Below, piece by piece: positions 20,116-21,622 of a stretch of 33,692 nt of DNA. The translations under genes and the position numbers were made by a program. Each line of letters opens with the position of its first letter. The stretch's first letter is position 1. Below the pieces are notes generated by a model. That model searched no databases and was not told the origin of the DNA. It saw nothing but the letters and a program-made list of their open reading frames with translations. This DNA is from Methanobacteriota archaeon (GTDB lineage Archaea > Thermoplasmatota > Thermoplasmata > SG8-5 > DAIRED01): positions 1 through 33,692 of the forward strand of contig JAZDNO010000018.1 of assembly GCA_043799545.1 (NCBI GenBank), given 5' to 3'.

Positions 20116-20841
20116 ATGGCTGAAAAGACCCAAACAAAGACGACCGCGAGAAAGGTCAAGGACAAGTGGAAGTCCAAGAACTGGTACACAGTGATAGCTC
20201 CGGACATGTTCAACAGGATGAAGCTTGCCGAGACGCTCGTGGACGAACCGGACAAGATGCTCGGGCGCATTCTCGAAGTTACAGTGCAGGAGCTCACGGG
20301 CGATTTCGCAAAGACCCACATCAAGCTGCTTTTCAAAATCAACAGGATAGCTGGCACGGAGGCGCACACGGAGTTCGTCGGGCACGACCTCACCAGCGAC
20401 TACATCAGGCGCATGACCCGGAGGAAGCGCTCTAAGGCGGACATCACCGTGGACGTGATAACGAAGGACGAGTTCCACATCAGGATAAAGCCCATGGCCA
20501 TCTCCGAGCGCAGAATCCAGAGCTCCCAGAAAACCGCAATAAGGAATAACATGAAGGTCGCACTCGTGGAATGGGCGAAGGGTTTGACTATTGACGAGTA
20601 TGTCAAGGCTGTCATTTCAGGCGACATGATACGCGAGCTGTCCAAGTCCTGCAAGCCCATCCAGCCGATGAACCGCGTCGAGATTCGAAGGTCCGAAGTC
20701 CTCAAGCCGGGGATAATCCCGGAGATAAAACCGGGACCGGGCGAGCAGCCAGCCGTCGAGGGAGCCGCGCCAGCCGAGACGCCCGCAGGGGCTCCTGTAG
20801 ATACCGAGCCATCAGCGCCGGTCGAGCCAGCGCCCCAGTGA
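20116..20841 (+). CDS. rps3ae: 30S ribosomal protein S3Ae (eS1), 241 aa with Pro/Ala/Glu-rich tail
   Basis: KDKWKSKNWYTVIAP, DYIRRMTRRKRSKAD, RRVEIRRSEVL-type motifs; TATAAATA box upstream. Confidence 0.95.
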   Translation: MAEKTQTKTTARKVKDKWKSKNWYTVIAPDMFNRMKLAETLVDEPDKMLGRILEVTVQELTGDFAKTHIKLLFKINRIAGTEAHTEFVGHDLTSDYIRRMTRRKRSKADITVDVITKDEFHIRIKPMAISERRIQSSQKTAIRNNMKVALVEWAKGLTIDEYVKAVISGDMIRELSKSCKPIQPMNRVEIRRSEVLKPGIIPEIKPGPGEQPAVEGAAPAETPAGAPVDTEPSAPVEPAPQ

Positions 20842-20890
20842 ATGTCGAAGACGGCGGTGTAAATCTCTTACTAGCCAATTCTATTAAACA

Positions 20891-20897
20891 TTATAAA
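20891..20897 (+). promoter_or_regulatory. TATA box likely driving a transcript that contains the two mini-elements and tRNA-Met
   Basis: TTATAAA preceded by an A-rich stretch; no comparable box between it and the tRNA at 21076. Confidence 0.5.
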
Positions 20898-20945
20898 CCA
20901 GAAAACCTTTGACGTGCCTAGAACCGTGAAAACATTTGACAGGAT

Positions 20946-20995
20946 GCCGGGGTGGCTTGCGAAGATGGTGGAAGCCACGGAGCAACAACCTCGGC
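20946..20995 (+). ncRNA. tRNA-like mini-element 1 (50 nt): 7-bp acceptor-like stem, D-stem-like helix, apical GGAA hairpin
   Basis: GCCGGGG...CCTCGGC closes a 7-bp stem nearly identical to the tRNA-Met acceptor; GCTT/GAGC mimics the tRNA D-stem GCTC/GAGC; TGGT-GGAA-GCCA hairpin. Function is inferred only. Confidence 0.5.
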
Positions 20996-21011
20996 GGGCC
21001 AACAGCAAAGT

Positions 21012-21059
21012 GCCGGGGCGGCTTGCGAGGCGACCGAAGTCGCCGAGTAAAACCTCGGC
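21012..21059 (+). ncRNA. tRNA-like mini-element 2 (48 nt), paralogue of element 1
   Basis: GCCGGGG-CG-GCTT-GCGA-GGCGAC-CGAA-GTCGCC-GAGT-AAAA-CCTCGGC; same architecture as element 1 with compensatory changes; 16-nt spacers on both sides. Confidence 0.5.
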
Positions 21060-21075
21060 TACCCAATCGCAATGT

Positions 21076-21185
21076 GCCGAGGTGGCTCAGCTGGTAGAGC
21101 GTCGGACTCATAGGGATTCACCTTGACGCTCTCAGGATTTCCCTGAGAAATCCGAAGGTCATGGGTTCAAACCCCATCCTCGGCA
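21076..21185 (+). tRNA. tRNA-Met (CAT), probably elongator, with a canonical 37/38 intron; CCA not encoded
   Basis: Acceptor GCCGAGG/CCTCGGC, D-arm GCTC-AGCTGGTA-GAGC, anticodon stem TCGGA/TCCGA with CT-CAT-A, T-arm ATGGG-TTCAAAC-CCCAT, discriminator A. G1-C72 argues against initiator; Ile2 is not formally excluded. Confidence 0.95.
21113..21149 (+). other. 37-nt tRNA intron with bulge-helix-bulge splice motif
   Basis: CTCA (21107-21110) pairs with TGAG (21144-21147), flanked by 3-nt bulges TAG and AAA; removal restores the CTCATAA anticodon loop. Confidence 0.85.
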
Positions 21186-21433
21186 CTCTATTTTTTATCC
21201 GAGCGAAGGCGTGCCAGGGATGTTGTCGATGGGTTACTTCGGACATAAACTGATGGAGTCGTAACCCACGACCCCATCCTCGCTTTTCGATGAAAATAGC
21301 CTTGCTAGAGTTCGGAAAATAGGTCGAGCCGAGCTGGGATGGCCTGAGTTTCTTTGCTCCCAATGCTTTCTTTGCGAAGGCCATTCCAGAGAGGCGAGAC
21401 TCAAAGAAAGCGTTGAACGGCGACCCCATCCTC
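21171..21433 (+). repeat. Three direct copies of ACCCCATCCTC (tRNA 3' end) at 21171, 21271 and 21423, plus an interrupted inverted copy at 21328-21342
   Basis: Exact 11-mer read directly three times within 263 nt; copies 2 and 3 share the 13-mer CGACCCCATCCTC; GCCGAG-CTGG-GATGG is the reverse complement of CCATCCTCGGC with a 4-nt insert. Confidence 0.8.
21191..21196 (+). terminator. Oligo-T terminator of the tRNA transcript
   Basis: T6 tract 5 nt after the discriminator base. Confidence 0.6.
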
Positions 21434-21622
21434 ATCATGCAAGAGCATCTATTGGCTGGCAATTTCCTTGTCCCATGCTGGCCCATGCCTTCTGAAAAAC
21501 ATTGGCGAGTGGGGTTTTGTTCAATAACTATACAATTAATATATAATATCTATAATAATATTTATATAGGAAACGCAGGATTGTGGGGCTCACCCTGTTA
21601 TAGACAGCGAGGGGGAAATGCA

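Follow-up and report, generated by a model that had tools for sequence, protein, structure and literature searches.

The elongator-type tRNA-Met gene on a contig from an archaeal metagenome-assembled genome (MAG) of the Thermoplasmatota is preceded by two short tandem units, U1 (20946-20995) and U2 (21012-21059), which copy both acceptor strands of that tRNA. The window analysed was the whole 33.7-kb contig (C13, 33,692 nt) of the source MAG (G000; 2.06 Mb, 94% complete), and the features of the tRNA-Met locus described here lie on the + strand unless stated otherwise. Comparison with related genomes indicated that purifying selection acts on the units through a structure that their sense strand forms and that they are one case of an order-wide class of modules matched to the adjacent tRNA, not peculiar to tRNA-Met. 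The best explanation, on which we judge belief and doubt to be evenly balanced, is that U1 and U2 arose as DNA-level duplications or insertions and were kept as self-folding leader modules, which would be removed by tRNA-processing enzymes.

Both units start with GCCGGGG(T/C)GGCTT and end with CCTCGGC. Their first 12 nt (20946-20957 in U1 and 21012-21023 in U2) are copies of the tRNA 5' end (GCCGAGGTGGCTC), identical at 11/12 and 10/12 positions, respectively, and their last seven (20989-20995 and 21053-21059) repeat the acceptor 3' strand of the tRNA, which itself ends in CCTCGGC-A. Each is followed by a 16-nt spacer. Spacer 1 (GGGCCAACAGCAAAGT, 20996-21011) conforms to a family consensus, nnnCCAAYnGCAAAGT, and its motif is kept in G001, a genome of the same genus (g1), and in G002, which belongs to a second family of the order. 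Spacer 2 (TACCCAATCGCAATGT, 21060-21075) is the immediate 5' leader of the tRNA, and its last bases, GT, can pair as an inverted repeat with the discriminator and trailer (AC). The spacers are identical at 10 of 16 positions, and the repeat search gave array periods of 66 and 64 nt. An initial annotation of the window had described these starts, ends, spacers and periods correctly, and had interpreted the units as 'mini-tRNAs' composed of an acceptor stem and a D-stem.

The folding results did not favor that anatomy. When the five units of G000 and G001 were folded separately, one common minimum-energy structure was obtained, a continuous hairpin (ensemble frequency 0.33-0.81). Its base is a 7-bp acceptor-strand helix; beyond a small internal loop, UUGC pairs with G(C/U)AA in a helix of 4 bp, and this leads through a 2x2 GA/GA loop, which is symmetric, to a 6-bp apical stem and a tetraloop. 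In U1 (-23.4 kcal/mol), helix 2 was formed by 20957-20960 with 20982-20985 and the GA/GA loop by 20961-62 and 20980-81, and the apical stem, closed by a GGAA loop, was partly degenerate. In U2 (-26.3 kcal/mol, ensemble frequency 0.78), the corresponding elements were 21023-26 with 21047-50 for helix 2, 21027-28 and 21045-46 for the GA/GA loop, and 21029-34 with 21039-44 for the apical stem, with a CGAA loop. The z-score against dinucleotide shuffles was -3.3 for the units of the window and -4.1 to -6.3 for those of the relatives. The D-stem-like pairing GCUU/GAG(C/U) proposed before is a feasible alternative on the same 3' bases, so two folds are indeed possible, but the covariation that had been cited for both does not separate them. 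The three compensatory changes reported in the apical stem are real: the alignment of five sequences had 96.5% of cells paired, with three of the six apical pairs changed on both sides, and pairing fell to 30-51% when the partner was slid by 1-3 columns. All six wobble cells in the family were G.U on the tRNA-sense strand, and A.C was never found. The apical tetraloops differed among the focal units (GGAA, CGAA, AGAA, and CGGA). When 20 units, which are not independent of one another, were folded on both strands, the sense strand was better in 16 (p = 0.007), with no asymmetry in G.U counts (52 vs 59); this gives weak backing to a sense-strand structure.

A covariance model of the unit (R1) found exactly three copies in G000: U1 (66.4 bits), U2 (70.3 bits), and C15:18567-18616, which sits 16 nt 5' of an intron-bearing tRNA-Ser(GGA) with the same acceptor stem as tRNA-Met. 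Among 22 genomes of the order, R1 found two more in G001, at the orthologous S3Ae/tRNA-Met locus, and one in G002, at the tRNA-Ser orthologue. The family thus comprises six units in three genomes of two sister families, placed before tRNA-Met or the same-acceptor tRNA-Ser, all of which take the common hairpin fold; the discriminator position is variable among them (G, T, T, C, T, and G). In the G002 copy, GCTTGCGA...GAGCAA is retained along with the spacer ACCAATCGCA; the apical stem there has a new pairing, GGCAAG/CTTGTC, and encloses a 16-nt loop. Metagenome contigs scanned with the 17-nt 5' core yielded 120 stretches, none of which scored above 25 bits with R1. Conservation of the units at orthologous rps3ae-tRNA-Met loci, which the initial annotation had put forward for comparison, was borne out in G001; as for the loci themselves, a synteny search based on S3Ae returned 11, and only in G001 was tRNA-Met kept after S3Ae.

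Between G000 and G001, identity was 80% for U1, 88% for U2, 62-69% for the spacers, and 99% for the tRNA. Four-fold sites of the adjacent S3Ae gene were 52% identical (48/93; 32% expected by chance), and forced alignment of unconstrained intergenic DNA gave 27-46%. The unit positions (83/99 identical) were conserved significantly above the four-fold sites (Fisher p = 2e-6), and the conserved positions include the unit core, which is not derived from the tRNA. Selection on the sense-strand structure is concluded from this conservation, from the compensatory changes, and from the wobble cells all being G.U; the earlier suggestions that the units are acceptor-stem mimics under selection and are not in decay are therefore upheld. 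Pairwise identities between units were 67-86% and showed no clean orthology. Moreover, tRNA-Met of G002 bears two longer units of the type found before tRNA-Ser in G000. The unit types of tRNA-Met and tRNA-Ser are thus swapped between the two genomes, and this argues for exchange between loci with a common acceptor stem. These longer units (110-130 nt; locus L003 on C15 of G000, 1373-1500, and locus L008 on C36 of G002, ~1250-1500) start with GCCGAGGT(A/G)GCTCGG-GA-hairpin-GA-CCG, and in the G002 one the tRNA-copy arm GCC-GA-GGTGGC pairs with GCCACC-GA-GGC instead of a perfect complement, which places a GA/GA loop on the tRNA copy itself. A different inner part was seen in another family (G017, locus L009, ~1300-1500), where tRNA-Met follows two 97-nt AT-rich units that start with the first 12 nt of the tRNA and an immediately adjoining T6, include an A/T-rich promoter-like stretch, and end with ACCTCGGCA; the acceptor copies are kept there, and the inner part is wholly different.

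The initial annotation had treated the units as a feature of tRNA-Met, which did not hold, as modules matched to the ends of the adjacent tRNA flank many tRNAs, a third or more, across the order. The first and last 10 nt of each tRNA were searched, with one mismatch at most, in its 300-nt flanks, and the ends of other, dissimilar tRNAs served as the control. The own 5' end was found upstream of 13/40 tRNAs in G000 (0.63 expected) and the own 3' end downstream of 16/40 (0.38 expected). The corresponding counts were 11/30 and 18/30 in G002 and 9/28 and 9/28 in G003, a genome of a third family, the upstream control values across the three genomes were 0.15-0.63, and all controls on either side stayed below 1. 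The complete genome of another order of the same class (G033) gave 0/30 on either side. Together the three positive genomes contained 46 upstream units at 34 tRNAs, and a run of T5 or longer occurred in only 3 of them. In each of these hairpin units the tRNA copy forms the 5' arm, which is paired with the acceptor 3' strand in 22 and with a complement of the D-arm region in the rest. The modules beside tRNA-Met also track their own tRNA, with arms GCCGAAGGTGG.../...CCCACCTTCGC beside a tRNA end CCCACCTTCGGC in genus g3 and counterpart arms ...CCCCATCCTCGC beside CCCCATCCTCGGC in G000. Two such modules lie downstream of tRNA-Met in the window. D1 (21213-21283) opens with the tRNA 3' end copied imperfectly and in inverted form (GCCAGGGATG), has an inner hairpin (GTCGATGGGTTAC/GTAACCCACGAC), and closes with a direct copy (CCCCATCCTCGC). 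D2 (21328-21433) starts with GCCGAGCTGGGATGG, has a 5'-end-like 10-mer at +143, and ends by repeating the tRNA 3' end directly once more (CCCCATCCTC, 21424-21433). Both lie 3' of the T6 tract that follows the tRNA gene, and in both the T-stem and acceptor 3' strand are copied twice, imperfectly and inverted at the start and directly at the end. G001 retains the first half of D1 and has other sequence in place of the remainder. No account of self-matched hairpins flanking archaeal tRNA genes was found in a full-text literature search, which left most subscription journals outside its coverage, and the order-wide habit is apparently undescribed.

The core of the units, by its sequence and pairing, is itself a reusable stem-loop. 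Hairpins with a GA/GA mismatch numbered 11 in 5.1 kb of leader arrays, and the inverted motif (TC/TC) occurred 7 times on the sense strand, vs 0-1 for each of eight other mismatch types; the DNA upstream of array-free tRNAs (9.5 kb) had 0-1 of each. A general genomic GA/GA motif was rejected, since the 176 found genome-wide are not commoner than other mismatch types (66-266) and the enrichment is specific to tRNA flanks. Likewise, 13 of 125 CGAG...CGAG hairpins, of which U2 contains one at 21026-21047, were located within 350 nt of a tRNA (1.55% of the genome), whereas five control tetramers with no relation to this motif gave 1-2 of 47-84. One tight family, CGAGG(G)CRAGG-15 nt-CCTYGCC(C)GAG, occurs antisense downstream of many different tRNAs and sense upstream of tRNA-Gly; its seven copies had 98.6% pairing with 5 of 10 pairs doubly changed, none of 500 shuffles was as good, and its G.U pairs were on the GA strand. 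A model of this hairpin with its conserved 15-nt loop (R2) gave 14 sites in G000, 12 of which were within 250 nt of a tRNA, and among 121 genomes of the class it had matches in G000, G001, and G002 only. The GA/GA loop is invariant in the focal family and in the long-loop module. The leader hairpin of the G002 tRNA-Ser, CGA-GGCAAG-AACTACGGG...-CCTTGTC-GAG, is, as read from its sequence, plainly a member of the dispersed family, and the focal units of genus g1 are best described as the same hairpin, its loop shortened to four bases. The reverse complement of a G002 Thr-type leader hairpin, CCGAGGCGACCGCAGTCGCCGAGG, is nearly the U2 core. The stem-loop was also found on the sense strand 3' of five tRNAs, where different sequences flank it, and at a few non-tRNA sites. 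Two hairpins at non-tRNA intergenic sites of G000 (C1:105828-105890 and C24:78394-78416), AGCGAGGGTTG..CAACCCGAGCG and GGACGAGC..GCTCGTCC, recur in tRNA leader units, one of them directly after a TATA-like box. Orientation was biased but not fixed: 10 upstream-sense, 3 upstream-antisense, 3 downstream-sense, and 11 downstream-antisense cases were counted in G000, with controls of about 2.5, so a strict mirror rule (sense upstream, antisense downstream) applies only in part.

The promoter-like sequences of the locus precede U1. An AT-rich TATA-like box (CATTATAAAC, 20888-20897), tentatively a promoter element, lies 49-58 nt 5' of U1, and a second box, P1 (GAAAACCTTTGACG, 20901-20914), which by sequence and position may act as the promoter, lies 32-45 nt 5' of it. 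The counterpart of P1 in G001 (AAACCCCTTGACA) is identical at 10/14 positions and stands at a similar distance from the unit. The repeat search revealed another copy of this box, P2 (GAAAACATTTGACA, 20928-20941), just 5-18 nt 5' of U1 and within a 22-nt direct repeat (20892-20913 / 20919-20940) carrying GAAAACCTTTGAC / GAAAACATTTGAC. Many units and tRNAs of G000 have this motif, AAAAYCnTTTGAYA, just 5-25 nt upstream, too near for a TATA box. For unit-free tRNAs, an AT-rich TATA-like 8-mer started 24-50 nt upstream in 40/64, with a sharp peak near -40, and the distance from P1 to U1 agrees with this position. Of 32 arrays of the three genomes, 24 had such an 8-mer at this distance (24-50 nt) from the first unit and just 10 had one at this distance from the tRNA itself; the G002 tRNA-Ser unit has GCGTTAAATACC 26-37 nt upstream. 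The first unit thus occupies the place where the tRNA would otherwise stand, which suggests that the tRNA is transcribed through the units. Inspection of the sequence between the promoter-like boxes and tRNA-Met showed no T-run. With a promoter-like box 5' of U1 and U2, the tRNA 3' of them, and no terminator in between, the co-transcription proposed in the initial annotation is likely, and tRNA-Met is probably transcribed through both. A coding reading of the overlapping open reading frames (ORFs; 20914-21126 and 20936-21097 on the + strand and 20884-21111 on the - strand) was rejected because they overlap the tRNA and both units contain 1-nt indels in the alignment of G000 and G001.

These observations can be combined into a scheme in which each module is composed of a copy of the first 12 nt of the tRNA, a hairpin of the dispersed family with a shortened loop, and a 7-nt copy of the acceptor 3' strand that closes the hairpin. 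Its origin would be a duplication or insertion of DNA at the 5' end of the tRNA, which would leave the original promoter before the first unit; the unit would then have been duplicated in tandem, and sequence would have been exchanged with the tRNA-Ser locus. An origin at the DNA level is favored by the end copies on the matching side of the gene, the displaced promoter, the dispersal of the hairpin, its presence in both orientations and behind terminators, and the swapping between loci. Because the two acceptor strands are mutually inverted repeats, any process landing on that duplex would insert oppositely at the two ends of the gene, which would explain the orientation bias. As to maintenance, the conservation suggests that a single-copy tRNA is transcribed through units that each fold on themselves and so avoid pairing with the real tRNA. 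RNase P would cut at +1 of the tRNA and, by analogy with tRNA-like elements (t-elements), probably at the equivalent +1 of each unit, and tRNase Z or another endonuclease may cut after the 3' strand of the unit. Such self-folding and removal at the RNA level would explain why the units are conserved, why they show compensatory changes, and why their wobble pairs are biased toward G.U. The archaeal RNase P RNA (RF00373) was found in 6/8 relatives of the order, which refuted a lineage without this RNA, and was not found in G000, probably owing to an assembly gap. Its scores in the six relatives (among G002-G010) were 127-157 bits, whereas nearly every genome from the other orders of the class scored 164-226 bits, and to judge from these scores the RNase P RNA of the module-bearing lineage looks unusually divergent.

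Several findings weigh against this explanation. Many relatives have an orthologous tRNA-Met without any unit, and the units are therefore dispensable in principle; the family is small, and its six copies come from three related genomes that are not independent. The units have no T-arm or elbow, on which type-A RNase P normally relies. The core is also found inverted within other leaders, and downstream of tRNAs it follows T-tract terminators in either orientation; no function in the tRNA transcript can account for such copies. Finally, the minimum free energy (MFE) fold of the full precursor was not the modular one (-96.9 kcal/mol) but a swap of strands between U2 and the tRNA (-107.3 kcal/mol), in agreement with the competing folds that had been anticipated. 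Both units of G000 carry G5 (G.U) vs A5 in the tRNA, so the tRNA is a better predicted partner for the 3' strand of U2 than the 5' strand of the unit itself, and the units may be as much a hindrance to tRNA folding as an aid. When growing transcripts were folded, the 3' strand of U2 moved to the 5' strand of the tRNA once the latter had emerged; the units of G001 carry A5. If these predicted energies are taken at face value, the precursor must fold under kinetic control or with assistance, or else the strand competition must itself be used.

The alternative that survives best, though we consider it rather unlikely, is that the modules are a matter of DNA only: miniature att-like cassettes without an integrase that accrete in tandem at tRNA ends, with a recombinase reading the hairpin and the RNA being incidental. 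Copies of the 5' end upstream and of the 3' end downstream have the geometry of att duplications, and direct 12-nt copies of the tRNA 5' end are indeed present at 20946 and 21012. The promoter left before a displaced 5' copy, the spread of the hairpin over unrelated tRNAs, in either orientation and also 3' of terminators, and the swapped types and unclear orthology of the units suit this alternative as well. Four tyrosine recombinases (PF00589) are encoded by G000, on C10, C12, and C25, and three of them adjoin tRNAs for Glu-UUC, Arg-UCU, and Val-GAC (C10:219117-219668, C12:73938-74411, and C25:2690-3220). However, none is on C13, and the 33.7-kb contig is devoid of recombinase genes. Modules of 50-130 nt whose arms fit each different tRNA are not explained by a sequence-specific integrase, and the inclusion of the 3' acceptor strand is unexpected for a simple att duplication. 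For the known integrases that target tRNA genes, the usual site is in the 3' portion of the gene, which also counts against it. Units at the same locus were conserved far above neutral expectation, albeit with only three copies per genome. A plain att scar was rejected for related reasons, namely, no integrase gene on the contig, constrained unit positions, and compensatory changes. Mobilization as REP/RAYT elements or as IS200-IS605 palindrome-associated elements (PATE) was rejected as well because no module-like hairpin or word was found within 700 nt of the three Y1 transposase genes of G000; one of these genes (IS200/IS605-type, C25:29957-30301) lies ~200 nt 5' of tRNA-Leu(GAG).

An improbable alternative is that the excised hairpins of ~50 nt act in trans as small RNAs, as decoys or substrates of the CCA-adding enzyme, synthetases, or toxins, or as partners of a GA/GA-binding protein. 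The invariance of the GA/GA loop and its enrichment in the arrays (11 hairpins vs 0-1 for other mismatch types or array-free leaders) are what such a role would predict, and the conserved 15-nt loop of the long-loop module suggests sequence-specific recognition. Yet the apical loop of the focal units is an arbitrary tetraloop, the discriminator is variable, neither a K-turn bulge nor C/D or H/ACA boxes were seen, and the inverted TC/TC copies are enriched too. We regard it as quite improbable that the units form a leader switch in which alternative pairing between unit and tRNA strands regulates the maturation of tRNA-Met. The strand-swapped fold being the global MFE, the change of folds as the 5' strand of the tRNA appears, and the conservation across families of the 16-nt spacer, which would be the hairpin loop, are compatible with it. 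On the other hand, any duplicated acceptor strand automatically provides alternatives, no sensor for a ligand or protein is evident, A5 in the G001 units removes the built-in bias there, and the same architecture at a dozen different tRNAs speaks against Met-specific control. Neutral decay of tandem tRNA-gene duplications is very improbable: the tandem geometry with the tRNA as last member, the greater degeneration of U1 than U2, and the lost or rearranged distal half of D1 in G001 would fit, but the conservation well above four-fold sites, the compensatory changes, and an identical non-tRNA core at other tRNAs and in another family would not.

The units and modules lie in a non-coding region (20842-21434) that begins after the gene of the 30S ribosomal protein S3Ae, ending at 20841, and holds the promoter-like boxes, U1 and U2, the tRNA, a T6 tract, and the two modules ending in copies of the tRNA 3' end; topoisomerase I, FKBP, and glycosyltransferase genes are also found in the window. 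The tRNA(CAU) gene (21076-21185; Rfam RF00005, 63.7 bits) is of the elongator-Met type (G1:C72). According to the Rfam alignment, its 39-nt anticodon-loop insertion is a 37-nt intron (~21113-21149) at the canonical position 37/38. Orthologues were found in 35/41 relatives. G1:C72 argues against an initiator, and the second CAU tRNA of G000 (C12:19769), which has its first 16 nt in common with tRNA-Ile(GAU), is likelier a tRNA-Ile2; the gene in the window is therefore read from its sequence as the elongator tRNA-Met. ARAGORN missed or mislabeled the intron-bearing tRNAs of G000 (C13:21076, C15:50455, and C15:18633) and called the window gene Ser(aga) with an intron at position 34. Within the tRNA-Met intron, (U/A)UGACGC ... 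C(U/C)UGAGA is kept in all orthologues (L007-L025) and faintly resembles box C and box D, with an imperfect fit to RUGAUGA. The T6 tract (21191-21196) is likely the terminator of tRNA-Met. Oligo-T termination of transcription is established in archaea, and T-rich tracts lie 3' of nearly all G000 tRNAs.

A broader possibility, which we put forward tentatively and think less probable than not, is that the order has a new system of GA/GA hairpin modules at both tRNA ends, with outer arms re-templated on the adjacent tRNA. Such a system could be a target-templated mobile element landing on the acceptor-stem inverted repeat, or a set of host 'minihelix' RNAs cut by RNase P and tRNase Z, with U1 and U2 as working copies. 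If the units prove to be processed leader modules, tRNA production in an archaeal lineage would routinely start from long, multi-hairpin precursors in which every hairpin mimics the acceptor stem of the tRNA concerned; these would be a natural counterpart of the engineered t-element cassettes of Haloferax and a new class of substrates for archaeal RNase P and tRNase Z. If they are mobile DNA, a recombination system that copies target ends would bear on tRNA genes as integration sites and on the evolution of their flanks. In practice, the modules confuse tRNA finders and predictors of att sites and islands in Thermoplasmatota MAGs.

The initial annotation had named no described family for the units, and none was found in the searches of Rfam and of the literature covered. 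No Rfam match was obtained by cmscan for 20946-21075, at the gathering threshold or at E up to 10, and only the tRNA at 21076-21185 was reported. The units gave sub-threshold noise with YrlA (15 bits), Proteo-phage-1 (15 bits), and RNAI (13 bits); YrlA (RF02553) was rejected at 15.2 bits and E = 2.8 for 21012-21130, against a threshold of 69 bits. Membership in a known Rfam family or a dispersed genomic repeat had been named as incompatible with the earlier proposal; the former was not found, but the core does belong to a dispersed hairpin module, and that proposal is partly undercut. Because the module is also inverted and placed behind terminators, its dispersal points to a DNA-level origin. 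The units are not tRNAs: a tRNA should reach 29 bits with RF00005 (the gathering threshold) and have an anticodon arm and a T-arm, ARAGORN found none in 20946-21075, and the apical loops have 4 nt. K-turn, box C/D, and H/ACA RNAs were rejected because the 2x2 GA/GA loop is symmetric between regular helices, with no K-turn bulge and no boxes, and the Rfam snoRNA scores were at most 15 bits. A hammerhead was rejected since CUUGCGA differs from CUGANGA, and a split or permuted tRNA since a complete tRNA is present, the units are copies of the acceptor strands only, and the predicted folds have no bulge-helix-bulge (BHB) motif at the unit junctions.

Other known systems resemble the units in part. 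Duplicated att sites and tandem accretion by SSV-type and pNOB8-type integrases and in bacterial islands likewise flank DNA beside a tRNA gene with direct repeats of its end and can build up arrays, and recombinase genes do adjoin three tRNAs of G000. By contrast, the cargo here is only 30-100 nt of structured non-coding sequence, with no integrase at the locus, and the units lie on the 5' side, include the complementary 3' strand, covary, and are conserved above neutral. REP/BIME and PATE elements, which are mobilized by Y1 transposases, are similar as short dispersed hairpins with a conserved asymmetric mismatch in both orientations, but the modules are tRNA-proximal (12/14 in G000), none flanks a Y1 gene, and their arms are templated on the adjacent tRNA. 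The disrupted tRNAs of archaea (PMC4033280 and PMC3978253) share an unusual order of tRNA-end sequences, with junctions of 3' strand, linker, and 5' strand as in permuted genes; here, the conserved intron-bearing gene is intact, and the units are not needed for its assembly and are not joined by a BHB.

A further comparison is with t-elements, non-decoding structures that mimic a tRNA or only its acceptor stem inside a longer transcript, as U1 and U2 probably do. A 7-bp helix of acceptor copies at the base of a stable hairpin was found here 3' of a promoter-like box, and transcription through it is likely. The T-arm motif GGTTCRANYCC, which has been used to locate t-elements (PMC1920247), is missing from 20946-21075 and present only in the tRNA, and the units, on their sequence, fail strict t-element membership. 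Moreover, t-elements punctuate mRNAs and rRNAs and usually keep the T-arm, whereas the units have none, precede a tRNA, copy its own acceptor strands, are arranged in tandem, and carry a dispersed GA/GA hairpin. A t-element upstream of the 5S rRNA of Haloferax volcanii has been used in vivo (PMC4326828), and tRNA-like elements and acceptor-stem-like stem-loops serve as RNase P and RNase Z signals in plant mitochondria (Forner et al. 2007, PMC1920247). By analogy, the minimal acceptor-stem-like stem-loops of plant mitochondria would be the closest described functional counterpart of U1 and U2, and we file the units among the tRNA-like cis elements of precursor transcripts.

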